Source: Candidatus Latescibacterota bacterium (GTDB lineage: Bacteria > Latescibacterota > UBA2968 > UBA8231). From it: 64,000 nucleotides of DNA. The number at the start of each line of letters is the position of its first letter. The first letter of the stretch is position 1. Location of the stretch: contig CBDFJF010000002.1 of the NCBI GenBank assembly GCA_965248265.1, forward strand, positions 2,190,699 to 2,254,698, written 5' to 3'. Under the pieces are notes generated by a model. It was not told where the DNA came from, did no database searches, and was given only the letters and a program-made list of their open reading frames with translations. Below, piece after piece: positions 44,861 through 63,421 of the stretch. The translations under genes and the position numbers were made by a program.

Positions 44861-46768
44861 ATGGAAAAAATCACCGCCACGGTACCCGTAACCGCCCCAC
44901 CATCATGGGCAGCCCAGCAGCGACTCCTGCTGCAGACCCTGGAGCAATCGGCGTATCCCTACTGGGATCGCTACGTCCGCGAGGACGGCGAGCTCTACTG
45001 GGACGACCGTTTTGGCGGCGGCAGCCCCGACGATTTCTACGAGGCCTTCTTCAGCTGGCCCCTCGTCTACGCGATGGGCGGCGGTAATCACCTGTTGGAG
45101 ATGGCGCATCGCGGCTGGGAAGGCATCACGCGATTGCTCACCCGTTGCGGCACCGTGCACAAGGAGTACGCCCGGGGCGAAGACCAATTCCACCAGTCCG
45201 AAAGCGACATCTTTTTCTACCACCTGTGCATGGCCGATCCCAGTAACACCAGCCTACAGATTCGCGCCCGCCGCTTCGCCGGCCTCTATCTCAACGAAGA
45301 CCCGGAGGCGATCAATTACGATCCGGAGCACAAGATTGTTCTCAGCCCGGTCAACGGATCTGGCGGTCCGCACTATCCTCCCGAGGGTTCCAAACCGGGT
45401 CTCTTCCGCGGCAGCGAGCGCTACGGTCTGCCCTCCTACGAGTTACCTGACGTGCAGTCATGGCAGGACACCGAGGACGACGACAAAGCGAGACGGCTGG
45501 GCGAAGTCATGCACGGACGCTGGGACAAGGGGGATGTCATTTCCAACCTCGGGCTCACCAGTCTGGCCACCAACGCCTTCCTGCTCACGGGCGAAGAGAA
45601 GTACCGCGACTGGGTCATCGAGTACACGGACGCCTGGATCGAGAGGGCCCGCGCCAACGACTGGATGATCCCCGACAACGTCGGCCATTCCGGCAAGGTC
45701 GGCGAGTACATCGATGGCAAATGGTACGGCGGGAAGTACGGCTGGACCCGGTTCCACGGCTGGTACAACATCCAGATGACGGCGACGGATGCCGCCGCCA
45801 ACGCCTACCTGCTGACGCGCGACGACCGTTACCTGGAACTGCCTCGGCGCCAGCTCGACCGCATTCTCGAGCTCGGCGAGGTTCGTGACATCAGCAAGGA
45901 GCACATGAGCCTGGACGTGCACTGGATCGGCCAGTTCATGGCCATGGGTGACAGAACCGAGACCTTGCTCGTCCCCTATCGCTACGGCGATTCCGGCTGG
46001 TTCGACTGGCAGCCTCCGTCACCTGTCTTCCTGGCCGCCCTGTGGAACCTCTCGATGGCGGACGAGGACTGGCAGCGCATCGAGCGCGTGCGCGAGGCCG
46101 AGGCCTACGACTGGAACGACGTCATCTCGTTCCGCAACAAGGAAGACGCCGGCCATGAGCCGCCCTGGTTGCGCTTTCTGGCTGGCGATAACCCCGATTA
46201 TCCCGAACGCTCGCTGCAGGCGAGCTACCAGCAGGTCGCCTGGCGTGTGGCCCTGGTCCGCAATGATGACGAGGTCGGCACGCACATGAACGTCCACCGC
46301 TGGCAGGAGACCAATCCGGTTTCCTCCGAGGCCCTTATCCAGCAGACCCTGGGTGCCCCGCAACCGATCTACAACGGCGGCCTCCTCCACTGCCGGCTGC
46401 GCTACTTCGATTGCCTGGCCAAACGGCCGGGCTTACCGCAAGATGTAGCCGCCCTCGTCGAGAAAGTCGAAGCCGGCCGCACGGTCGTCCGACTCATCAA
46501 CCTGAATCCACAGGAAAACCGCGAACTGATCGTGCAGGCGGGGGGTTACGGAGAGCACAGCTTCGGAGAGCTCGAGTTCAACGCCAGGACGAGCGACTAC
46601 CCGGGGCCCACGACCGACTACGCGCCCAAACCGATCACGACGGAGAAGCGCAAAGTCGCCGTCAACGACAAGCATGTGCAGGTCGCGTTGCCTGCGGGAA
46701 CCGAAATCAGTCTGGATTTGAGTACGCAGCGTTACGTCAACGAACCGACGTGTGGTGGGCCCTTCTGA
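44861..46768 (+). CDS. hypothetical protein (635 aa, cytoplasmic; W/Y-rich; possible alpha/alpha-toroid carbohydrate-active enzyme)
   Basis: Long ORF with codon usage consistent with its neighbours; no family recognised by eye. Confidence 0.45.
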   Translation: MEKITATVPVTAPPSWAAQQRLLLQTLEQSAYPYWDRYVREDGELYWDDRFGGGSPDDFYEAFFSWPLVYAMGGGNHLLEMAHRGWEGITRLLTRCGTVHKEYARGEDQFHQSESDIFFYHLCMADPSNTSLQIRARRFAGLYLNEDPEAINYDPEHKIVLSPVNGSGGPHYPPEGSKPGLFRGSERYGLPSYELPDVQSWQDTEDDDKARRLGEVMHGRWDKGDVISNLGLTSLATNAFLLTGEEKYRDWVIEYTDAWIERARANDWMIPDNVGHSGKVGEYIDGKWYGGKYGWTRFHGWYNIQMTATDAAANAYLLTRDDRYLELPRRQLDRILELGEVRDISKEHMSLDVHWIGQFMAMGDRTETLLVPYRYGDSGWFDWQPPSPVFLAALWNLSMADEDWQRIERVREAEAYDWNDVISFRNKEDAGHEPPWLRFLAGDNPDYPERSLQASYQQVAWRVALVRNDDEVGTHMNVHRWQETNPVSSEALIQQTLGAPQPIYNGGLLHCRLRYFDCLAKRPGLPQDVAALVEKVEAGRTVVRLINLNPQENRELIVQAGGYGEHSFGELEFNARTSDYPGPTTDYAPKPITTEKRKVAVNDKHVQVALPAGTEISLDLSTQRYVNEPTCGGPF

Positions 46769-46787: not shown

Positions 46788-48272
46788 TCATTCTGGCGCG
46801 TTGTCCAGGAAATACGCATCGAGCGCCCGCGGCTCCGCACCCGCCGACTTGAACTTCTGGTAGTCGTACGGCCCCACTGGCGCAAAGTCCCCACGCATCG
46901 CGTAAATCGACCCATCAGTCAGCCGCACCGAGAATCGCACCACCTGCCCCGCCACCTGCGCCATCGACTTCCCGTCTTTCCACTGCGGTATCCAGTACAG
47001 CTCATCCCCCGCGAATGAAACGGCATCGTCGAAACCGTACCCGGCAAGCGGCTCCCCCATCGCATCCTCCACCTGCACGCGGATCTCACCCTCAGGCGCT
47101 TTCACATTGATCTGCAGCTCTCCCCCTTTCCAGTAGACGATCCGCGTCGTCATCGAACCCGCTTCCCCCTCCGACTCCAGATAGCAGAACCCGTCCAGCC
47201 GCAGCTCGTGCAGAAGGATGGCGCTTTCTGTCAACAGCGACGGATCCTGAGACACCTCACCGTGTTCCCCCTTGAACGAGCTCGAGTACACCCGGATCCG
47301 ATCATCCGCCGTGACCACCATACTCGACGCGTGAACGAGACCGGCGCCATGCTGACCCGGCTCGGAATTGGCAATGAACGGATCCCGCAGCCCCCGCTGA
47401 AAGTGCCAGCCGTTGTAGCTGTAGACGAGCTGACAGTCGATGGTGCCGTAGAGGAACTTGATCGGTCCGTCGATCTCCGCCGTTTCGCTGTACGCCGCCG
47501 ACACCTTGGGTGGCGTGTGATAAACCCACAGAAACCCGACGAACATCCCTTCGTAGGGAAACACCGGCATCCCGTAGAGCTCCGCCGCCGGCGTATCGAG
47601 GGCGTCTGCCTGCAGCAGCAGCTCCGGCTTCGAGAAGTTCCGCCAGTCCCTCGTCTCATAAATAGCCACCCGCCGATCCCCGATACTCGGCCGTGCCGTG
47701 ATGCAGTAACTGTTGCGGTATTCATTCCAGAACACGCACGCCGCCGGATCGATGCCGTGGGGATGCCACCGCGCCCCTTCGGGTCGTTTCCACGACCTCC
47801 CGTCTGTCGAGGTATGGAGTAGACAGTCGTGCCCCAGCCGATCCTCCGCCCAGCAGCAGACCAGTCCCTTGATCCGCTCCCCCGGGTCCTCCGCCTGCCC
47901 ATCGAAGTAGGCCGGCGCCCACTCGAAGAATTCCCCCGAGGGGATCACCTGGTGGGGTACCCGCCTCGGAAAGTCATCTCCCCCGCCGGACAGATCCGGC
48001 GTCTCCCAGTGCACCCCGTCGTCACTCTCCGCTACCGCGGCGACAAACCCGTCATTGTCATGGATCGGTCCCCCCTGGTAGAGACAGCGCCAGACCCCGC
48101 TGTCCGGATCGCGAAACACCGAGGGGTATCCCGAATGCACGTCGAGTTGGGGATCGACGAAGACCCCTTCTGGGACGAGCTGCGGAGTGCCGACCCGGCG
48201 CTCCATATTTTGCCGGTCATAGAGATGCCAGTCGTCGAAAAAAAGCATGACTCTGTTCTCCTTCGTCGGCAT
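46788..48272 (-). CDS. GH43/GH130-like beta-propeller glycosidase family protein (paralog)
   Basis: MPTKENRVMLFFDDWHLYDRQN...GYPSVFRDPDSGVWRCLYQ...AESDDGVHWETPDL... Its start lies 4 nt downstream of the upstream heparinase-like stop, suggesting an operon. Confidence 0.55.
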   Translation of the reverse strand: MPTKENRVMLFFDDWHLYDRQNMERRVGTPQLVPEGVFVDPQLDVHSGYPSVFRDPDSGVWRCLYQGGPIHDNDGFVAAVAESDDGVHWETPDLSGGGDDFPRRVPHQVIPSGEFFEWAPAYFDGQAEDPGERIKGLVCCWAEDRLGHDCLLHTSTDGRSWKRPEGARWHPHGIDPAACVFWNEYRNSYCITARPSIGDRRVAIYETRDWRNFSKPELLLQADALDTPAAELYGMPVFPYEGMFVGFLWVYHTPPKVSAAYSETAEIDGPIKFLYGTIDCQLVYSYNGWHFQRGLRDPFIANSEPGQHGAGLVHASSMVVTADDRIRVYSSSFKGEHGEVSQDPSLLTESAILLHELRLDGFCYLESEGEAGSMTTRIVYWKGGELQINVKAPEGEIRVQVEDAMGEPLAGYGFDDAVSFAGDELYWIPQWKDGKSMAQVAGQVVRFSVRLTDGSIYAMRGDFAPVGPYDYQKFKSAGAEPRALDAYFLDNAPE

Positions 48273-52504: not shown

Positions 52505-53227
52505 ATGCGGTGTATTTTCGCAGGTATCGAGTACGCGGGAAAATCGACGCTTATAGGGCTGCTCGCCCAGTACTACAAGAGGCGCGGCCGGCGAGTTCAC
52601 GCCGACGATCATTTCTCCATCCCGGATTCGACCTTGAGTCCCGACTCACAGGCGGCCATGGTGGGATACCCGCAGGATGTGAGGGAGCGCATGCAGCGCA
52701 TGCAGATCCAGTACCACATCGAAGTCATCAAGAATCACGAGAACGTGCTGCTAGGTGGATGGCACATCGAGGAGTACGTCTACTCTTCCGTCTACGGACA
52801 GGACCCGTCGAGTGCGTACTACCCCAACTATTCGTACGGCGTGCAGCGCGTGTACGAATCGCGCGTTCTGGAAGAACGCTTACCCGACACCGTCCTCGTC
52901 CACCTCAGCGCCAGCGACGAAGCGATCGTCGGGCGAATGAGAGGCCAGCCTCACCAATACCAAGTCATTCGAGAGAAGGACATCCCGGATTTGAAGAAGC
53001 GTTTCGATGAGGAGGTGGGACGCTCGCTTTTTTGCTGGGGTAACCGAAGACTCGACATGGATACGACGGACAAGACACCGCAGGAGTCCCTGGACGAGTT
53101 GCTAGAGCGCTCTGAACCACTCGTTACGGCCGGAGAAATCGCCATGCGGGCGCTGCCGGTTCCGGAGGGAGGCTTCGAGGTCCGCTACAGAGACGGCGTG
53201 CGCGAAGTCGTGCAGTCGAAAGCGTGA
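52505..53227 (+). CDS. P-loop NTPase / small-molecule-kinase-like protein
   Basis: An N-terminal Walker A motif (FAGIEYAGKSTLIG) begins 5 residues in. 240 aa. AT-rich upstream region with a GAGGAGAG RBS. Confidence 0.5.
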   Translation: MRCIFAGIEYAGKSTLIGLLAQYYKRRGRRVHADDHFSIPDSTLSPDSQAAMVGYPQDVRERMQRMQIQYHIEVIKNHENVLLGGWHIEEYVYSSVYGQDPSSAYYPNYSYGVQRVYESRVLEERLPDTVLVHLSASDEAIVGRMRGQPHQYQVIREKDIPDLKKRFDEEVGRSLFCWGNRRLDMDTTDKTPQESLDELLERSEPLVTAGEIAMRALPVPEGGFEVRYRDGVREVVQSKA

Positions 53228-53303: not shown

Positions 53304-54137
53304 TCACTCTGCAAGATGCCGGAACAGGGGTTTCACCTCGTCGCTCAGCGCCGCGAAGACGTCCTTGGGAATTCGGGAAAGGTTCGCAGCCTTCCCTGCC
53401 CTCTCCACCACCATGCTCATGTTCTCGGGCGTACCCTCAATCTCGGGATTCAGATTGATCCACCAGGGTCCATAGCGGACCGAAATGGCGACGCGTGGCT
53501 CGGTGCTGCGGTTCGGCGCCACTGCGTGCCAGAGTCGGCTGTCATAGATCAAGACGCTGCCCGGATCGCCGGTAGCGGAAACCTCGGTGAGATATGGAGC
53601 ATCCCGATCGACGCCGTTGTCCCCGGAAGGGTTGTTGCTGGATCGATGGCTTCCAGGCACCAAGAAGGTGCCGCCGTTCTCGGCGTTGAATGGTGTCAGC
53701 ATCCAGATGGTGCTCAGATGCATCAGTGTGTCGGGATAGGGAGCCTCGATCCGTGCCGAGTTCGTCTGGTTGTAGGGCCAGTCGGCGTGCCAGTATCCGC
53801 GATCGTTACCTGGATGGGTGACGATCCCGCCGGCGCTCGAGATCCGCACGTCCGGGCCGAAGAAAGCCTCTGCCGTTCCGAGAACGCGGGGATCAGCCAG
53901 GTAGGCTGCGAATTCCTGAGTCGAGTTGATCAGAGACGTGCTGAAGGTGACCCCTTGAGCACCGACCCGATGTCCTTTGCTACGGATCTCTTCTTGGCGG
54001 CGCTGATTGATTTCTGCTTCACGCGCGTGGACTCGAAGCACACCTTGTTTGACACCATCGATCTGGTCGTCGGGAATGACGTCCTCGATCACGCAGAAGC
54101 CGTCCAGCTTGATGTGGTTTACTATGGTTTCGACCAT
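53304..54137 (-). CDS. phytanoyl-CoA dioxygenase (PhyH) family oxygenase
   Basis: 277 aa with jelly-roll His/Asp...His motifs (WHADWPYN..., ...LWHAVAPN). Confidence 0.75.
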   Translation of the reverse strand: MVETIVNHIKLDGFCVIEDVIPDDQIDGVKQGVLRVHAREAEINQRRQEEIRSKGHRVGAQGVTFSTSLINSTQEFAAYLADPRVLGTAEAFFGPDVRISSAGGIVTHPGNDRGYWHADWPYNQTNSARIEAPYPDTLMHLSTIWMLTPFNAENGGTFLVPGSHRSSNNPSGDNGVDRDAPYLTEVSATGDPGSVLIYDSRLWHAVAPNRSTEPRVAISVRYGPWWINLNPEIEGTPENMSMVVERAGKAANLSRIPKDVFAALSDEVKPLFRHLAE

Positions 54138-55926: not shown

Positions 55927-56790
55927 TTAAATCCCTACGCCGAACTCGCTCTCGAACTCCACCCAGATCTCCGCCGGAACCCCCTGCGTGGCTGCTTTGT
56001 AGGCGTCCTCGAGTTGGCTGCGGTTCGCCGGCCCACTCATGACGATACCGTCAATCGGCGCGTCGAGACAGAACTCCATCGCCAGGTGTTTGATGTCGAC
56101 GCCGTTCTCCTGACACCACTGCCACATGGCGTGCGCGCGTGGTTTTTCGATCCTATCCGGTTCGACTCCGGTCAGACTTCCCATGCCGAACACACTGGCC
56201 AGGATCAGCCCGACGCCGTGTTGCTTGGCCAGAGGCATGGTCGTGCGCGCGACCGACTGGTTGAGCAGCGTGTAGTCCAGAAAAGTCAGAACGACTTCGG
56301 CGTGGCCGGCTTCGATGGCGGCTCGGTGGAAGTCTTGCTCGCGTACGCCCAGGCCGAGGTGCCGTACCAGTCCCTCCGCTTTCATTTTTTGCAACTCGTC
56401 AAAAGCCCGGTCGGGACCCAGGGGATCCTCGATCGTGAGCGGATCGTGGACCAGGACCGAATCAAGGTAGTCCACTCGCAGCTGGCGCAGGCTGTTTTCA
56501 ACGCTCCAGCGGGTCGCCTCTGCCGAGAAATCCTTCGGCCGGTCGGGGTGCGGACCCACCTTCGCTTGCAGGTAAAAGGTCGAACGCTCAACACCTGATA
56601 GGGCCTGACCCCAACGCTCTTCACCTCGGCCAGCGTAGGTGTCGAAGAAGTCGATACCCAGCTCGAGAGCACGCTCGACCGTGGCGATTGTCTCAGCCTC
56701 TGGGGCCTGACTGACAAACGCGGCGCCCATGCCCAGCGCTCGCGGCCGCATCTCTGTCCTGCCCATTCGTCTTCGTGGTAGTTCGATCAA
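55927..56790 (-). CDS. aldo/keto reductase
   Basis: 287 aa AKR TIM barrel (...GIDFFDTYAGRGEERWGQAL...). Confidence 0.75.
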   Translation of the reverse strand: MIELPRRRMGRTEMRPRALGMGAAFVSQAPEAETIATVERALELGIDFFDTYAGRGEERWGQALSGVERSTFYLQAKVGPHPDRPKDFSAEATRWSVENSLRQLRVDYLDSVLVHDPLTIEDPLGPDRAFDELQKMKAEGLVRHLGLGVREQDFHRAAIEAGHAEVVLTFLDYTLLNQSVARTTMPLAKQHGVGLILASVFGMGSLTGVEPDRIEKPRAHAMWQWCQENGVDIKHLAMEFCLDAPIDGIVMSGPANRSQLEDAYKAATQGVPAEIWVEFESEFGVGI

Positions 56791-56980
56791 TCAGGATCCC
56801 TCCTGCGGTCGCGAGCGAGTGGCGCTGAGGCAACCGCCGACGGTGTGATCAACTTGCTTCCGACCGTGGGACTGATCGATCGTCGTACTGCCGCCGAAAA
56901 CGGTATCGTGAATTCGTGTCGCAGTGTGGTGAGGAATGGGCCCGAGGGTAGACGTGCTCAAGGTCAGGACCGGATTGACC

Positions 56981-57592
56981 TTATGACATACGGTTGGCCT
57001 TGGGTGAGCCGACCACGTAGTCGCCGCCGCTGGCCTTGGCTTGGTAGAGGCGGTCGCAGAGTTCGTTGTAGAGCTTGTCCGTCGTCTCGCTGATCTTCAC
57101 TTTATCTATCTCACCAGTTATTTCGGCCGTGCCTACGCTACACGTCATACCCTTGAATTCAACCCCGTCGACGCTGAAGCTCTCATCTCTAAACAGATTT
57201 TTTACCGTCGCGGCACGACGCTTGGCATAGCCTTCGGTTTTAGTCGGGATCACGATGGCGAAGTTGGCGCCGTCGCAATGGTAGAGACGCTCACCGGACT
57301 CGAGTTGGTTCTTAAAAAATTGAGAAAACTGTTGGATGAGGTGGTCGCCAACGACCCGGCCATGGCCTTGGTTAATATCGCCGAGTTTATCGGGACAGAT
57401 CAGCATGCAGGCGAGGGCGAAGGTCGAGCCCTTGTCCTTGATCAGCTCTTTGGGCAAGACGACCTGGAAGAGCATCAGATTGTTGGGCAACTTGGATAGA
57501 CGGTTGACACCAGCCAACCGCATCCACTTCCGGTTTTCTTCCTCGAGTCGTTGGACGCGGGCTTTGAGCTGATTGAGAGATTGCTCGGCCAT
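56981..57592 (-). CDS. coiled-coil + degenerate GGDEF-domain protein (CDGAN in place of GGDEF; probably non-cyclase)
   Basis: 203 aa. N-terminal QLKARVQRLEEENRKW coiled coil, then GGDEF-fold blocks: ACMLICPDKLGDINQGHGRVVGDHL (the D-x-D...GD pocket), RLYHCDGANFAIVIP (in place of RYGGDEFaillP), MTCSVGTAE, DRLYQAKASGGDYVV. GC content is visibly lower (~52%) than in the flanks. Confidence 0.6.
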   Translation of the reverse strand: MAEQSLNQLKARVQRLEEENRKWMRLAGVNRLSKLPNNLMLFQVVLPKELIKDKGSTFALACMLICPDKLGDINQGHGRVVGDHLIQQFSQFFKNQLESGERLYHCDGANFAIVIPTKTEGYAKRRAATVKNLFRDESFSVDGVEFKGMTCSVGTAEITGEIDKVKISETTDKLYNELCDRLYQAKASGGDYVVGSPKANRMS

Positions 57593-57706
57593 GGAGTTCT
57601 CGTTTGCGCTCTGCCTTGCGGATTACTGACACCGATGACGAGAATATATCGCTGCTGATGGCGTGCATCAAGATGTGATCGAGCGCAAGGAAGCGCATCC
57701 CTATCA

Positions 57707-57744
57707 GGGCTCTTGAGGGCGCCATCCTCTATCAGCAAGAGCCC
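57707..57744 (-). terminator. GC-rich hairpin (9-bp perfect stem GGGCTCTTG...CAAGAGCCC, 20-nt loop) 7 nt downstream of the sulfatase stop
   Basis: Seen directly in the sequence. There is no U-tract, so this is a terminator candidate only, as is common in high-GC genomes. It also lies upstream of the GGDEF-like gene and could be an operator. Confidence 0.3.
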
Positions 57745-57751
57745 GAAGCAT

Positions 57752-59182
57752 TCACTGGCCGAACCCTCGAAAGCCAGGAACGACTCCCAATTCCTCGCGC
57801 AGCCCAAGGCATTCCACCTCCCACTGATCCACGCGCCGCCGCAGATCCGAGACCTCCGGCGGCTCCCGGCGCTTCCCGCTGCCGACCAGGTTCACTAGTT
57901 CCCCCGGATCCTGGAGCAAGTCGTAGGCCTCGTCACCGTAGTCTGGGTCTCGAACGTAGGAGAATGCCGCGGTGCGTACCCCCTGTACAAGCCCGGGATG
58001 CCTGCCGGCCAGCGGCAGGCCCGACGGCATCGTGGTCCCCAGCGAGCCGTGATACTCACCGACTTGAGCGAATACCGCATCGCGGAGAGGTCCGCGCAAC
58101 CCGCCCCGGAGCCATGAAACCAGATCGTGGCCCTGCGCGTACGCGGGGACCGGTGCACCGGCGAGCGTCAGTATGGTCGGGAACAGGTCCACGTGGTCTA
58201 CCAAGCCGGTAACCCTGCCGCCTCTGTTCCACTGGATATTCGCGGGAGGAACGATGATCAGCGGAACGTGAAGCAGACACTCGTACAGGGATTCGGTCTT
58301 GGTGAAGAGACCTTTCTCGCCGGCATAGTCGCCGTGATCAGAGCCGATAATGATCCAGGTGTTCTCGAGCAGTCCTCGTCGACCCATCTCTTCGCACAGG
58401 CGGCGCATCTGCGCATCGGCGTAGGCCAACATTCCCAGGTATACTGCCACCATCTTCACGATGTCGTTTTCAGTCGCCTTCTCCGTCCCCATCTGCTCGC
58501 GGGCCATGATCTGCCACTCTGGCCGGCCGCTCCCACCTTGCGCCGGAAGATCTACCGAGTCAGTCCGCACGAGGGTGTCATACGGTGGACTCGCAAAGTA
58601 GGGAGGATGCGCCTCGAGCAAGGCGAGGTGCAGGAAGTAGGGCGCGTCCGTCGATTCGATGCCGTCCAGTGCCTCGATGGTCCTGGAGACCAGCCGGTGG
58701 GCATGGCCCTCCTCCGGGGGATATTCCAGGGTGCCTGAGGACCACCCGACGTCCGAGTCTCCGTGTGAATACCAGAGCTTGAGTGCCTCGCCGACCGGGC
58801 CGTTCTCCTTCATGCTGATCTGCTCCTGCCATCCGCGCGTCAGCTCCCTGTCGTGCTCGTAGTGTCCCACCGCCGCGGTGTAGTAGCCCTGGCTGTCGAG
58901 CAGCTCGGAGAGCTGCGGCAGATTGTCCGGTGCCCGGTTCTGGTGACAGGTCACCTGGTGGACCAGGGGATGAACACCGGTGAACACCGACGCTCGGGAG
59001 GGCGTGCAGATGGGGCTGGTGGAGTAGGCCTGCTCGAACGACGTCCCCCGAGCTGCCATGGCGGTCATGAACGGGGTCGGAAAATGAACCCCGGAGGCCG
59101 AGGCCTTTTGCTGGTCGGTCATCAGGTAGAGGATATTGGGACGGTTGCCTGCCCCGCGTCCGCGGCTGCGCTCAGGGGCCAT
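57752..59182 (-). CDS. arylsulfatase-family sulfatase (formylglycine-dependent)
   Basis: CTPSRAS (C-x-P-x-R) motif and NILYLMTDQQ. No signal peptide, so apparently cytoplasmic. Confidence 0.8.
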   Translation of the reverse strand: MAPERSRGRGAGNRPNILYLMTDQQKASASGVHFPTPFMTAMAARGTSFEQAYSTSPICTPSRASVFTGVHPLVHQVTCHQNRAPDNLPQLSELLDSQGYYTAAVGHYEHDRELTRGWQEQISMKENGPVGEALKLWYSHGDSDVGWSSGTLEYPPEEGHAHRLVSRTIEALDGIESTDAPYFLHLALLEAHPPYFASPPYDTLVRTDSVDLPAQGGSGRPEWQIMAREQMGTEKATENDIVKMVAVYLGMLAYADAQMRRLCEEMGRRGLLENTWIIIGSDHGDYAGEKGLFTKTESLYECLLHVPLIIVPPANIQWNRGGRVTGLVDHVDLFPTILTLAGAPVPAYAQGHDLVSWLRGGLRGPLRDAVFAQVGEYHGSLGTTMPSGLPLAGRHPGLVQGVRTAAFSYVRDPDYGDEAYDLLQDPGELVNLVGSGKRREPPEVSDLRRRVDQWEVECLGLREELGVVPGFRGFGQ

Positions 59183-59319: not shown

Positions 59320-60267
59320 TCAGCCGTCTTGGTCCGAGGTGGCGAGTCGGAAACCCACAGTCTCCCGCGTATGCGTCTCCGGCGCGCTGCTGCGATGCGT
59401 CGTGCGTACATTGGGTCGAGTCTCGCCGAAGAACCCCCCGCGGATCACTCGTTCCTGACCGCCCTCCGGTCCTTTCGGGTTAACGGCCGGACTGAACTGG
59501 TAGTAGCTCTCTTCGTAGTAATCCCAACACCACTCGTAGACGTTGCCAGACATGTCCCAGACTCCGAACGGGCTGCGGCCCAAAGGAAACTCGTCGACGG
59601 GCAAGGTCGTGCCCACCATGTTGTTGGAGTTGCAGCGCTCGCCATCAACGAATCGGTTGCCCCAGGGGTACAGACGTTCATCGTCGCCGCGCGCCGCAAA
59701 TTCCCATTCGGCTTCGGTGGGCAATCGAGCGCCCATCCAGTCGGCGTACGCTCTGGCATCGTGGTAAGAGACGTTGACGACAGGATGCCGCGCCAACCCG
59801 GCGGGATAGGTTCCCCTCTGCCAGTGGATCGGTGTGACTTGACCGGTGCAATTGACGAACTCGCGGTAGTCTTGGTTCGTCACCGGATAGGTGTCGATGT
59901 AGAAGGAGGATAGTTGGACCAGGTGAGAGGGGCGCTCATTGTCCGGTGAGTCTTCCTCGCGGCCCCCCATCGAGAACGAACCTCCTTCGATGTGGATCAT
60001 CCTCCTCTTGTTGGCTTCGGGCAGCAACTCTACCCGGGCCTGCTCGAGCTCCTCCATCTGCAGATCAACATCATCCTGACGACTCATTATCTGAACAACA
60101 TCCTCTTTGATCTTGCCCAAACGCACTTCCATTTCCCGCCGCCGAGTCTCCTGGTGGTCGATCGCCTCCATAAGCTTCTTCGACGGTTTGTTAAAATCTA
60201 GCAGGAGCATGACAAAGTACAGACTGACAGCACAGGTCAATATCCACCACATCCAGCTGTCAGCCAT
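59320..60267 (-). CDS. formylglycine-generating enzyme (SUMF1/FGE) family protein with N-terminal TM helix and coiled coil
   Basis: FGE-sulfatase domain blocks (RGGSFxxxxxxxRxAxR-like tail ...VIRGGFFGETRPNVRTTHR; WEFAARG; NVYEWCWD). N-terminal MADSWMWWILTCAVSLYFVMLLL is a TM helix followed by a heptad-like charged segment. Confidence 0.8.
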   Translation of the reverse strand: MADSWMWWILTCAVSLYFVMLLLDFNKPSKKLMEAIDHQETRRREMEVRLGKIKEDVVQIMSRQDDVDLQMEELEQARVELLPEANKRRMIHIEGGSFSMGGREEDSPDNERPSHLVQLSSFYIDTYPVTNQDYREFVNCTGQVTPIHWQRGTYPAGLARHPVVNVSYHDARAYADWMGARLPTEAEWEFAARGDDERLYPWGNRFVDGERCNSNNMVGTTLPVDEFPLGRSPFGVWDMSGNVYEWCWDYYEESYYQFSPAVNPKGPEGGQERVIRGGFFGETRPNVRTTHRSSAPETHTRETVGFRLATSDQDG

Positions 60268-60625
60268 AACTGATTTCTCCTGTAGGGATCTCGTCCACTA
60301 ACGCCAGGTATTTTCAGAATACCGTAAGCGCTTGTTTTCATTGGTGCCCGAAGTCCGGACTCGAACAGGCACGGGCTGTTATGCCCAACGGATTTTAAGT
60401 CCAAAATCGACCCTTGTAGGCCGCTGGGCAAGATCCAACTGAGCCACTTCTGACTCGATCCGTCCGCTGTCCCAATCCTCCACAGTAGCAATGCGCGGGC
60501 CGCCGGTCACGTGAATGTGACCGACGGAGCGCACGATGTGGGCGGCGGCCTCGTGGTTGTGGGTCCCCGCCCTCATCGGATCCAGGTAGAACGCGCTCGA
60601 AGGCCTCCTCGAGCCGTGGCCTTCG

Positions 60626-61865: not shown

Positions 61866-62624
61866 TCAGAGCTTCCCCTCCGCTTCCCGCTGGGCCGCAA
61901 GCTGCCTGCGGTAGGCATCCCGCCGCTGTGTGTCTATGATGGCGCGCTTTGCGTGATAGACAAAACCGAGTGCAGTTCGGGGCCGATCGCTGGGATTGGC
62001 ATCGGCGCGGTGGATGATCAAACTGTGGTGGACGATGAGATCCCCGGGCTCGACGATCATCGACACCTCGGCGGCAAAATCTTCATCGCCGAAATCCGTG
62101 ATACCCTGAGAGAACCCGATGACCCCGCTCCGTCTGTGAGGTCTCAAACCGCGCCGGTGAGAGCCTGGGATATAGCGGATGCAGCCATTCTCTTCGTCTG
62201 CGGCGTCGATCGCCAGCCACATCGTCAGCGCCTCGTTCGGCTCCAGCATGAAATAGAACCCGTCCTGGTGAGGCGGGGTCGCCTGGCCGATCCGCGGTGG
62301 TTTGCTCATCCACTGCATCGCCGACTCTCGGGCTCCGTCCAGGAGGTGATGGGCAAGTCCGAAGAACTGTTCGTCGTTGTAGAGCTCGTTGAAGTAGTCG
62401 TCGTGCTCCGCCATCGCGCTCAGGCGCATGATGGTCTCGGTATCGTCCTTGACTTCGTAGAACGCCTCGTCATTCGGCAGCCCTGGCAATACGTCGGTCA
62501 CGTAACGCTCGACATTTTCGCGCACCTGTGCGGTTTCCTCCGCACTCAAGTAGTTGCGCAGGATGATGTACCCATCCCGGTCGAAGTCCCGTTTGATCTT
62601 TTCTGCGTTCTGTTTCCAGTCCAT
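61866..62624 (-). CDS. phytanoyl-CoA dioxygenase (PhyH) family oxygenase
   Basis: MDWKQNAEKIKRDFDRDGYIILRNYLSAEE... ATG at 62624. Confidence 0.75.
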   Translation of the reverse strand: MDWKQNAEKIKRDFDRDGYIILRNYLSAEETAQVRENVERYVTDVLPGLPNDEAFYEVKDDTETIMRLSAMAEHDDYFNELYNDEQFFGLAHHLLDGARESAMQWMSKPPRIGQATPPHQDGFYFMLEPNEALTMWLAIDAADEENGCIRYIPGSHRRGLRPHRRSGVIGFSQGITDFGDEDFAAEVSMIVEPGDLIVHHSLIIHRADANPSDRPRTALGFVYHAKRAIIDTQRRDAYRRQLAAQREAEGKL

Positions 62625-62744
62625 AGCGATTCGCCTCTGCGATATTCTTGACCACATTATTTGCCTGAAGGTTGCCGAGTTGCTGCGTTTACGCAAACGC
62701 CGCGAGAAGAGGTCTCACTTGGTACTGTGCCGAGACTGCGTCAC

Positions 62745-62776
62745 TCTTGCTGGCGGAGCACAGTGGCTATAATACT
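62745..62776 (+). promoter_or_regulatory. candidate sigma70-type promoter (CTTGCT - 16 nt - TATAAT) for the 62861 gene
   Basis: cttgctggcggagcacagtggcTATAATact is read directly from the sequence. The divergent intergenic region (62625-62860) between the PhyH gene and the hypothetical gene is comparatively AT-rich. Confidence 0.3.
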
Positions 62777-62860
62777 CAGACGCGAGCGACGTACCGTGTC
62801 TGCCAAGCCGCCAGACGCGGGTCGTCGCAGTGGTTTTTACCAAAACAGCCGAGGTGTCCC

Positions 62861-63421
62861 ATGCTGAATGAATATCAGGAATTCAACTATCACACCATCA
62901 GAAGCTTCACCACGTATGCCTGCAAGGTGGACGACGACACCGTGGAGAAGGAGATCAGTTTTCACGTCATGCTAGGGCCCCACACCGAGCGCAAGCAGGA
63001 CACGTTTCCGGTTTACCGCATACCGGAAGGCAAGATGGTGTGGCTGAGCGACTGGTCGTTCAATGCGGGGAATGTCAAATGTCCCGAGCTCTCCGTCGGC
63101 GGCAGCCTCGGCCGAATTTGCGGTGAAGGTCGGTACATCTACGTCCTCAACTGTGCCCTGGAAGCCGGCGAAATGGAGATCTTCTCGCCAGCGCGATCGA
63201 TCCGCTACCTGGCCGACGAATGGTTGGCAGTATGCTTTCACCACATGGGGGTTCCCATGGATCTGGGTGTTCGCGCGACTTTCCGGTTCACGGAAGTCGC
63301 GGGCCCCGACAAACCCTTCGAGACCGAAACCTTCAACTGGCAAGCCAGGACTGAAAGTGAGCGCTTCCCTCCGGCACACATGGCGAAGACAGCATGTTAT
63401 CACCAGCGGGCTTCTATCTAA
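62861..63421 (+). CDS. hypothetical protein (186 aa)
   Basis: ATG 62861 with a GAGGTG RBS: [26 protein letters not shown]... The 63 codons upstream in the track ORF are low-complexity. Lower GC (~55%). No family recognised. Confidence 0.45.

Follow-up and report, generated by a model that had tools for sequence, protein, structure and literature searches.

What is the function of a protein that has the fold of a diguanylate cyclase and a signature motif in which both catalytic acids are replaced? The question is raised by a gene for a 203-residue protein in the window analysed here, a 64-kb stretch (64,000 nucleotides in all) of a Candidatus Latescibacterota genome. An earlier description made from the letters of the DNA (here called the sequence-only reading) had seen a small coiled-coil protein with a GGDEF fold, encoded between an AKR gene on one side and a sulfatase/FGE pair on the other, and Pfam bears out those neighbors (Table 1). 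The ORF begins with ATG, at a position consistent with its orthologs. The explanation that we favor, with slightly less than even confidence, is that the protein is a non-catalytic, dimeric guanine-nucleotide sensor or adaptor, i.e., a cytoplasmic pseudo-diguanylate cyclase.

Table 1. Positions in the window of the gene, its neighbors, the features of its product and the upstream elements.
Feature	Positions	Strand	Basis or remark
AKR	55927-56790	-	Pfam
CDS, 203 aa, coiled coil and degenerate GGDEF domain	56981..57592	-	ORF list, Pfam, homologs, dN/dS
N-terminal stalk helix, residues 2-27	57512..57589	-	AF2 helix, Foldseek alignments
GGDEF-fold domain, residues 31-190	57023..57502	-	Pfam envelope, AF2 topology, Foldseek
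C66-P67-D68, replacing D-[ILV]-D	57389..57397	-	DosC/PleD alignment
N74...G78-R79...G82-D83, guanine recognition	57344..57373	-	PleD N335 and D344 equivalents kept
E98-S-G-E101, at the I-site RxxD position	57290..57301	-	DosC/PleD alignment
H105-C-D-G-A-N-F111, opposite R-Y-G-G-[D/E]-E-F	57260..57280	-	DosC/PleD alignments
K186-A-S-G-G190	57023..57037	-	PleD K442 kept as Lys; phosphate-binding R446 replaced by Gly
Sigma-70-like promoter candidate, TTGATG-17-TATATT	57643..57671	-	~50 nt upstream of the ATG; consensus match only
Inverted repeat, GGGCTCTTG-N20-CAAGAGCCC	57707..57744	.	Perfect over 9 nt; 8 nt beyond the sulfatase stop codon
Sulfatase	57752-59182	-	Pfam
FGE	59320-60267	-	Pfam

Curated profile cut-offs place the protein in the GGDEF superfamily, with PF00990 matching residues 31–190 (E = 9.3e-12, 45.4 bits against a cut-off of 23.8 bits) and TIGR00254 scoring 42.2 bits against a cut-off of 37.4. 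The AF2 model (pLDDT 87.6) has strands at residues 58–67, 102–106, 110–116 and 151–160 and helices at 70–77, 79–95, 120–136 and 164–187, a Palm-like beta-alpha-alpha-beta-beta-alpha-beta-alpha fold that superposes on solved GGDEF domains; Foldseek aligns it to PleD and others with probability 1.0, TMq 0.72–0.75 and an rmsd of 2.2–2.8 Å over ~170 residues. The best PDB match is the coiled-coil plus GGDEF protein DgcB (6ttr), and the alignments to 6ttr and to GCN4-WspR (3i5c) extend over 197–199 columns. Pfam, the PleD/DosC alignment, AF2 and Foldseek thus bear out the first proposal, a GGDEF-fold protein whose active-site motif is dead and whose N-terminal part is a coiled coil. A defence-system reading was dropped, as none of the PADLOC model families matched the protein at E ≤ 0.01.

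In the stalk helix, the a and d positions can be read from the sequence as L6, L9, V13, L16, N20, W23 and A27, about three heptads with an Asn at an 'a' position. N20, W23 and M24 are unchanged throughout the query subfamily in the ortholog alignment, and the segment NRKWMRLAG is common to the stand-alone and fused members of the wider clade described below, in which W23 is present in 100%, N20 in 99% and G28 in 99% of sequences. The architecture and fold are those of the stalk-GGDEF cyclases DgcB (6ttr), WspR, GCN4-WspR (3i5c) and PleD (1w25, 2v0n), in which a dimerising N-terminal helix leads through an LTGLPN turn into the GGDEF domain; against these cyclases Foldseek gives probability 1.0 and TMq 0.68–0.75. 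From the heptad pattern and by analogy with active cyclases that carry the same stalk (DgcB, WspR), we infer that the protein is a parallel coiled-coil homodimer.

Residue-level alignments to DosC and PleD show how far the likeness extends. The GG[D/E]EF of an active cyclase, with its two acids, is represented by D107-G-A-N-F111, where A109 and N110 stand for E370 and E371 (PleD numbering for the lost acids). The sequence-only reading was right that both acids had been replaced, but its motif, CDGAN, was one residue out of register. It had also held the D-x-D region to be recognisable, which it is not: the first Asp, a metal ligand at the end of beta1 (PleD D327), is Cys66, in a C-P-D triplet. 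The phosphate binders K332, K442 and R446 correspond to G71, K186 and G190, and one of the three is therefore kept. For guanine recognition, on the other hand, both residues (PleD N335 and D344) are present as N74 and D83, and close to them the clade-specific R79 stands where canonical domains have His. Nor is this a GGDEF domain of the cGAMP-producing Hypr type, which combines a Ser in place of the guanine-specifying Asp at the D344 position with an intact motif; here D83 is kept and the motif is dead.

The same alignments bear on the idea that had led the earlier reading, a c-di-GMP receptor. Many degenerate GGDEF domains act as I-site c-di-GMP receptors, and those of PopA, PelD, Bacillus subtilis YdaK and SgmT, which are non-catalytic, bind the dinucleotide through RxxD, a motif that precedes the signature by five residues. 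The present protein likewise contains a non-catalytic GGDEF module, and its fold is intact by AF2 and Foldseek, as such a receptor would have it; but where canonical domains have R at position 98 and D at position 101 it has E at both, T129 takes the place of the secondary I-site Arg (PleD R390), and the clade's list for position 98, which gives the six most frequent residues, contains no R. We regard an I-site receptor of the PopA, PelD or YdaK kind as very unlikely.

Searches with the protein retrieved 39 homolog clusters at 52–100% identity. HCDGANF is unchanged in all 26 aligned orthologs, which span that same range of identity, and dN/dS among orthologs is 0.09–0.35. Whole-library phmmer and profile searches delimited a wider clade of 120 members, characterised by H-x-D-G-x-[N/H]-F. 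On a clade profile (A3) built from 25 sequences, these members score 157–276 bits, the full-length ones at least 195, whereas canonical GGDEF/GGEEF domains score at most 117; the window ORF lies in the high cluster at 268 bits, a value that is partly by construction as the query is among the 25. Most members are stand-alone proteins of ~200 residues from Latescibacterota/Gemmatimonadota MAGs, and several paralogous stand-alone subfamilies as well as DUF2225 fusions are found in the same phyla. Among 78 non-redundant members the H105–F111 motif is kept with H at 92%, D at 95%, G at 97% and F at 99%; N74 is present in 100%, D83 and K186 in 96% each, and D68 and R79 in 94% each, while G190 is found in 96%, as against 76% R at that position in canonical domains. 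Position 66, D in canonical domains, is S, C, A, G or T, position 109 is A, T, S or V, and position 110 is mainly N or H, also D, Y, T or C (one Asp); the canonical D, E and E, respectively, do not occur at these three positions among the residues listed for the 78. The query has all of the signature residues W23, P47, G71, R79, H105, D107 and G190, which are 90–100% conserved in the clade.

These data show that the replacements are fixed in a discrete clade that is subject to purifying selection; the clade is old, well conserved and so far undescribed, and is not a case of recent decay. Unlike the stalk-GGDEF cyclases, with which it shares the guanine-contacting Asn and Asp and the K442 equivalent, the protein lacks GG[D/E]EF, the metal-binding Asp, the K332 and R446 equivalents and RxxD, and it falls in a separate profile cluster; therefore it should not be filed as a cyclase. 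A close homolog with an intact GGDEF motif would have pointed to trivial degeneration, and there is none; given this and the conservation of HCDGANF and of the clade motif, the part of the sequence-only reading that proposed an adaptor or a novel function still stands. Literature searches returned nothing on a DGANF-type clade and no published name for it; searches on degenerate GGDEF domains with ABC transporters or coiled coils returned nothing on the H-x-D-G-x-[N/H]-F clade, those on Latescibacter* and GGDEF nothing relevant, and those on stand-alone, inactive, GTP-binding GGDEF domains nothing specific.

The base composition of the gene, given earlier as ~52% GC against ~65% in the flanks, could instead suggest a remnant, either of recent degeneration or gained by horizontal transfer, on an islet of low GC. 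The gene is indeed lower, but the true figures are 54.1% against 58–64% for the flanking genes and 61.1% for the window as a whole; among 612-bp windows it ranks at the 1.7th percentile, the minimum (52.6%) being elsewhere. At third codon positions its GC is 69.6%, like that of its neighbors (69.7–77.6%), so the deficit resides in codon positions 1 and 2 and reflects amino-acid composition. In other MAGs the GC of the orthologs follows that of their own flanks, and relatives come from the same phyla only. Horizontal transfer was rejected on codon-position GC. Together with the constancy of the motif over 52–100% identity and the dN/dS values, these observations leave the remnant explanation with hardly any probability, and recent decay or acquisition was rejected on the conservation and codon-position data.

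The remodeled site invites other explanations. In the query subfamily C62, C66, C106, C151 and C179 are each at least 90% conserved in the ortholog alignment; two of them lie at the former metal site, C66 in place of the metal-binding Asp and C106 immediately before the motif, and the five could serve as metal ligands or provide a regulatory disulfide in a thiol-based redox or metal sensor. Sister subfamilies, however, have F/L, S/A/G, L/I/V, V/L/A and N/E at the respective positions, small or hydrophobic core-type residues and not a ligand set, and the protein is cytoplasmic and has no CxxC-type spacing, which makes such a sensor improbable. A somewhat better case, though still an unlikely one, can be made for an enzyme with new chemistry, in which an active site rebuilt from D68, D107, N110/H110, H105 and R79 would carry out another reaction on a nucleotide. 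The clade has a fixed alternative set of residues (H105, D107, N/H110 and R79) rather than random decay, D107 occupies the beta-hairpin turn from which the acids were lost, and the symmetric dimer architecture of the cyclases would, judging from the model, be retained. Against this, neither canonical metal position is acidic in the clade, position 66 is variable and so does not provide a conserved ligand, Gly has replaced both the P-loop Lys and R446, and solved GGDEF structures offer no precedent, the Foldseek matches being canonical cyclases only.

A dismantled triphosphate and metal site is also what would be expected of a ligand-free adaptor or dominant-negative subunit, whose stalk (NRKWMRLAG) would heterodimerise with stalk paralogs and modulate them without any nucleotide. 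In agreement with this idea, no segment is more conserved than the stalk, in stand-alone and fused members alike, and the same phyla contain paralogous stand-alone subfamilies and DUF2225 fusions. Candidates for such heterodimers are DUF2225-GGDEF and ABC-GGDEF proteins, stand-alone clade members and active cyclases. Yet N74, D83 and K186 are as conserved as the stalk, and a pure scaffold would have no need of them; we consider the adaptor a real but minority possibility. If it is correct, the clade would be a case in which pseudoenzyme paralogs control their relatives by way of a dimerisation stalk that they have in common.

The retained guanine pocket is the reason for our preference for a nucleotide sensor. 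In such a protein the stalk helix would pair as a parallel coiled coil, and the homodimer would neither make c-di-GMP nor bind it at an I-site. The remodeled former active site (N74, D83 and K186 together with the clade-specific R79, H105, D107 and N110) would accommodate a guanine nucleotide, with no Mg2+-triphosphate chemistry involved, and the nucleotide state would be relayed by protein–protein contact. GTP itself may bind poorly, because only one of the three side chains that bind phosphate is left. The retention of N74 and D83 could also be structural rather than ligand-related. In Caulobacter PdeA (CC3396), a degenerate GGDEF domain (GEDEF) that binds GTP switches on the EAL domain next to it. 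The concept proposed here is the same, an allosteric sensor made from a dead GGDEF domain whose former active site still binds nucleotide; in PdeA, however, most of the residues for phosphate and metal remain and the GGDEF domain is joined to an EAL output domain, whereas in the present protein the triphosphate/metal site is dismantled and the protein stands alone with no EAL domain. LapD, FimX and CsrD contain ligand-free dead GGDEF domains that serve as structural or regulatory modules in dimeric GGDEF-EAL tandem proteins, and in which, to our knowledge, the guanine-pocket residues are not conserved. Members of the present clade, by contrast, stand alone or are fused to DUF2225 or ABC exporters.

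These fusions point to possible partners. DUF2225 (PF09986) is found in both orders, N-terminal to the stalk-GGDEF unit in P0046, P0047, P0052, P0066 and ~30 clusters, and C-terminal to an HCDGANF-type GGDEF domain in P0041, which is 53% identical to the query and present in three metagenomes; the DUF2225 segments from the two orders align well with each other. A second type joins ABC_membrane, ABC_tran and GGDEF (P0049, P0060, P0062, P0074, P0076), and both types are present in the same phyla. Gene neighborhoods are not conserved, and for this reason the partners are deduced from the fusions: the most likely are DUF2225 zinc-ribbon/helical proteins and type-I ABC exporters. The earlier suggestion that a survey of homologs might reveal conserved partners led to none, for when the ORFs of eight distinct loci were clustered and three paralog loci inspected, only the GGDEF gene was common to all. 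Searches by tblastn and with an HMM of five DUF2225 segments, over the six-frame window and all loci, returned only the known fusion loci, and no DUF2225 or ABC-GGDEF gene is present in the 64-kb window or adjoins any query-subfamily ortholog. Histidine kinases lie one to three genes away in six of the eight loci, with mutual identities of 27–35%, and there is none in the window. A PhyH ortholog lies 2–5 kb away in four loci, which we read as residual synteny. A search for solved relatives of DUF2225 found none, and the searchable literature contains only three mentions of it, all incidental.

The region upstream of the gene does contain the 9-bp-stem hairpin noted earlier, as a perfect inverted repeat with arms at 57707–57715 and 57736–57744 and a 20-nt spacer, and 100 shuffles of the window yielded no chance match. 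The repeat is absent from the minimum-energy structure of the 168-nt upstream RNA, which folds no better than shuffled sequences (z = +0.84), and is not conserved upstream of the orthologs; it could mark the end of the sulfatase transcript or be an operator. A scan for promoter consensus sequences gave one site where 0.3 were expected. An Rfam scan of 56700–57900 gave only a sub-threshold archaeal snoRNA match (17 bits against a 35-bit cut-off), and the sequences that precede the gene at eight loci do not align (mean column identity 36%). A riboswitch or leader was rejected on the Rfam result, the unaligned upstream regions and the shuffle-like RNA fold.

Degenerate GGDEF domains are frequent, and as a rule they are either written off as cyclases in decay or taken for I-site receptors; the present one is neither. 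If the protein is a nucleotide sensor, the clade would be an unstudied signaling module in poorly known, uncultured phyla and would offer a first handle on DUF2225. A broader proposal, to which we give a rather low probability, is that the clade is a distinct functional class that arose from the diguanylate cyclases, either a receptor for a guanine-containing signal that is neither GTP nor I-site c-di-GMP or an enzyme with rebuilt catalytic residues, with its output through the DUF2225 proteins and ABC exporters that are fused to clade members. For the receptor version, examples of such signals are (p)ppGpp, pGpG and c-di-GMP that spans the dimer in the way a product would. Whether the protein is a sensor or an adaptor, the automatic annotation 'diguanylate cyclase' that several sources give to family members is wrong for this clade. 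If the clade is a distinct class, it would provide the first functional context for DUF2225 and a new second-messenger output pathway in Latescibacterota/Gemmatimonadota.

The query, the 203-residue product of the degenerate GGDEF gene, is matched by the Pfam GGDEF family over residues 31–190 (E=9.3e-12; 45.4 bits, cut-off 23.8) and by TIGR00254, and its closest PDB sequences are the cyclases DosC and PleD. Its AlphaFold2 model, built with 26 homologs as input (mean pLDDT 87.6), is helical over residues 2–27 and then adopts the standard GGDEF topology. Foldseek matched this model exclusively to GGDEF domains in the PDB (probability 1.0, TMq 0.72–0.75), the best being the coiled-coil plus GGDEF construct of Caulobacter DgcB (6ttr), and aligned the GCN4-WspR fusion across ~199 columns. 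The hydrophobic a/d positions of the stalk helix are L6, L9, V13, L16, N20, W23, and A27, with N20 an invariant Asn at an 'a' position, the GCN4-type mark of a parallel dimer. All of this agrees with the sequence-only reading of a GGDEF-fold protein with an N-terminal coiled coil. The stalk is highly conserved, which favors a ligand-free adaptor or dominant-negative subunit working through it; we regard this as doubtful, even as the main rival to the nucleotide-binding dimer that we prefer.

In HMMER alignments to PleD and DosC, ungapped over query residues 60–140 with PleD numbering 261 above that of the query, PleD R366-Y-G-G-E-E-F372 corresponds to H105-C-D-G-A-N-F111; the correspondences were computed here, and the roles assigned to PleD residues are those of the established structural literature. 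The motif is degenerate as first noted, but its register was one residue off (DGANF rather than CDGAN), and both catalytic acids are indeed replaced (E370 by A109, E371 by N110). The metal-binding residues D327 and E370 are lost (C66, A109), as are the phosphate-binding K332 and R446 (G71, G190). Phosphate-binding K442 is kept as K186 and guanine-binding N335 and D344 as N74 and D83, so the half of the substrate pocket that recognizes the base is retained. The inhibitory site R359-x-x-D362 is replaced by E98-S-G-E101 and the secondary-site R390 by T129, so that a c-di-GMP receptor acting through the I-site, as had been proposed, is disfavored by direct tests and very improbable. With metal, catalytic, phosphate, and I-site residues lost, the query, judged by its sequence, can be neither a conventional cyclase nor an I-site receptor. 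It shares the stalk-GGDEF architecture of DgcB and WspR but lacks four of the five sequence features used to recognize active cyclases, and also the RxxD used for I-site receptors. The nearest functional precedent is Caulobacter PdeA, whose dead GGDEF domain reportedly senses GTP; unlike the query, that domain has kept the residues of its triphosphate and metal site and is coupled to an EAL domain.

Searching 5.8 billion proteins identified 39 clusters at 52–100% identity to the query, nearly all of ~200 aa, with the named ones coming from Latescibacterota-type MAGs. Across 26 aligned homologs, H105-C-D-G-A-N-F111 is without variation, as are W23, M24, P67-D68, N74, G78-R79, D83, S152, G154, K186, and G189-G190, and conservation is 90% or higher at C62, C66, C151, C179, E98, and E101. 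Seven orthologs compared pairwise give dN/dS values of 0.09–0.35, with synonymous sites close to saturation, which shows purifying selection, and the DGANF motif is an ancient state under selection. By an exhaustive phmmer scan (1.84 billion representatives) and profile search, the query subfamily is nested in a larger, sharply bounded clade, whose 120 members score 157–276 bits on the clade profile (full-length members at least 195) against at most 117 for canonical GGDEF/GGEEF domains.

Compared with 145 canonical domains, 78 non-redundant members of the clade show fixed switches, given here as clade then canonical residue, at positions 23 (W 100%; L), 47 (P 100%; variable), 71 (G 90%; K), 79 (R 94%; H), 105 (H 92%; R), 107 (D 95%; G), 190 (G 96%; R), 66 (S/C/A/G; D), 109 (A/T/S/V; E/D), and 110 (N/H; E). 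N74 (100% of the clade members), D83 (96%), K186 (96%), and D68 (94%) are common to clade and cyclases. With these switches fixed clade-wide and these residues shared, the homologs do not bear the intact GGDEF motif that would mark the degeneration as trivial and recent. That the replacements form a fixed set, with an Asp newly placed in the catalytic hairpin, would suit an enzyme rebuilt for new chemistry, which we consider improbable. A sensor based on the subfamily's conserved cysteines is more unlikely still, because sister subfamilies have hydrophobic or small residues there.

The majority of the clade are stand-alone proteins of 195–230 aa, in at least four paralogous subfamilies (the query's HCDGANF, VHIDGANF, GHLDG[ST]HF, and GHIDGSHY), all found in Latescibacterota or Gemmatimonadota MAGs. 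Database entries call members 'diguanylate cyclase (GGDEF)-like' or 'GGDEF domain-containing'; neither the H-x-D-G-x-[N/H]-F clade nor any GGDEF-DUF2225 fusion turned up in the literature that could be searched. Several sister subfamilies and DUF2225-fused proteins (P0044, P0050, P0051, P0052, P0056, P0058, P0066, P0068, P0072) conserve an aromatic C-terminal tail (...TEF, ...INF, ...KRF, ...TQF) that might serve as a docking motif; proteins of the query subfamily have no such tail and finish with ...GSPKxxx.

Other members are fusions. An N-terminal DUF2225 precedes the stalk-GGDEF in ~30 clusters of 550–610 aa from Latescibacterota/Gemmatimonadota (P0046, P0047, P0052, P0066), and ABC_membrane plus ABC_tran precede it in P0049, P0060, P0062, P0074, and P0076. 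The HCDGANF-bearing P0041 shares 53% identity with the query; here GGDEF comes first and DUF2225 second, the opposite arrangement, and the gene was found in three independent metagenome assemblies. On a fourth contig of its locus TAA replaces CAA precisely where the stand-alone proteins end, a single C/T change at that point between contigs L016 and L023, which are 95% identical; past the TAA in L023 the DUF2225 frame stays open and has no ATG, GTG, or TTG in frame ahead of the zinc ribbon. A natural nonsense polymorphism, a sequencing error, or programmed read-through might each explain the difference. DUF2225 moieties from both orders align well and have the zinc-ribbon CxxC...CxxC, YYLRIAWLYRD, and FSGAMQK in common. 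That one DUF2225 subfamily is fused independently in two orders constitutes Rosetta-stone evidence that points to a functional link. No DUF2225 gene occurs in the window or adjoins any ortholog, and we found no solved structural relative of DUF2225 and essentially no literature on it. The stand-alone paralog P0071 (GHLDGSHY type) lies ~2.7 kb downstream of an ABC_membrane plus ABC_tran exporter gene, the transporter type that other members carry as a fusion.

Features of the window and of homologous loci (L-numbered contigs)
Feature	Position	Strand	Remark
Degenerate GGDEF ORF	56981-57592	minus	ATG start, 203 codons
Aldo/keto reductase (AKR)	55927-56790	minus	Pfam
Sulfatase	57752-59182	minus	Pfam
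Formylglycine-generating enzyme (FGE)	59320-60267	minus	Pfam; FGE domain at residues 88-309
FGE N-terminal extension	59990-60267	minus
Low-GC stretch	60000-60399		GC 51%
Inverted repeat	57707-57715 / 57736-57744		perfect, 9 nt; 20-nt spacer, no U-tract
Sigma-70-like hexamer pair	57671-57643		candidate promoter, between repeat and ATG
PhyH genes	53304-54137; 61866-62696	minus
PhyH genes	L001:2742-4365; L005:9575-11361; L013:6465-8088
P-loop protein	52505-53227	plus	240 aa
ORF without Pfam match	44861-46768	plus	635 aa
ORF without Pfam match	46788-48272	minus	494 aa
ORF without Pfam match	62672-63421	plus	249 aa
P0041 fusion	L016:6001-7617
Counterpart with TAA	L023:3204-4202
P0071 locus	L022:1-1513

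The GGDEF gene is probably monocistronic, with intergenic gaps of 159 nt upstream, towards the sulfatase and FGE genes, and 190 nt downstream, towards the AKR gene. Carbohydrate and sulfated-glycan catabolism is the theme of its wider neighborhood, which also holds heparinase II/III, an MFS transporter, two PhyH dioxygenases, an SDR, a xylose-isomerase-like barrel, GFO_IDH, and a second AKR. The surroundings of orthologs and paralogs differ, with no shared gene neighborhood; histidine kinases near orthologs are not mutually orthologous, and none is in the window. In four lineages, PhyH-family genes, often paired, do recur within 2–5 kb of the degenerate GGDEF gene with varying genes between, which we read as residual synteny, not an operon. 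The FGE-sulfatase protein is unusual in that its N-terminus is extended, ahead of the FGE domain, by a hydrophobic segment WMWWILTCAVSLYFVMLLLDF and then a charged helical stretch, and GC over 60000-60399 is the lowest in that part of the window, below that of the GGDEF gene. Three ORFs without a Pfam match at E≤1e-4 sit close to the heparinase/sulfatase genes. The P-loop protein has only weak matches (thymidylate kinase, AAA_18); AAA_18- or ADK-like small kinases lie near the L001 and L005 orthologs, with no detectable homology to it.

At 54.1%, GC content of the GGDEF gene is indeed low; the window averages 61.1% (sd 3.3% for 612-bp windows), and the gene falls at the 1.7th percentile. Its GC3 of 69.6% is that of its neighbors (69.7–77.6%). 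The shortfall lies in GC1 (56%) and GC2 (36%), which mirror amino-acid composition. In six other MAGs the ortholog is within ~3.5 points of its own flanks. These results argue against the horizontal acquisition once suggested, and a recent decay product or transferred remnant, disfavored by direct tests, is scarcely credible. The reported upstream inverted repeat is real, with no chance occurrence in shuffles of the window, and starts 8 nt past the sulfatase stop codon. Lacking a U-tract, it is no obvious intrinsic terminator, and may be an operator or transcript-end structure. The upstream RNA is of unremarkable stability (z=+0.84), and its minimum-energy fold does not include the repeat, which is not conserved upstream of orthologs. 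No Rfam family was found in the region around the gene.

We tentatively suggest, at somewhat short of even confidence, that the query would form a parallel homodimer via its stalk, bind a guanine nucleotide at the remodeled pocket, and signal through contacts with partners of the DUF2225 or ABC type. As far as sequence comparison can establish, the clade is a solid, conserved pseudoenzyme family from uncultured phyla, with a suggestive partner.
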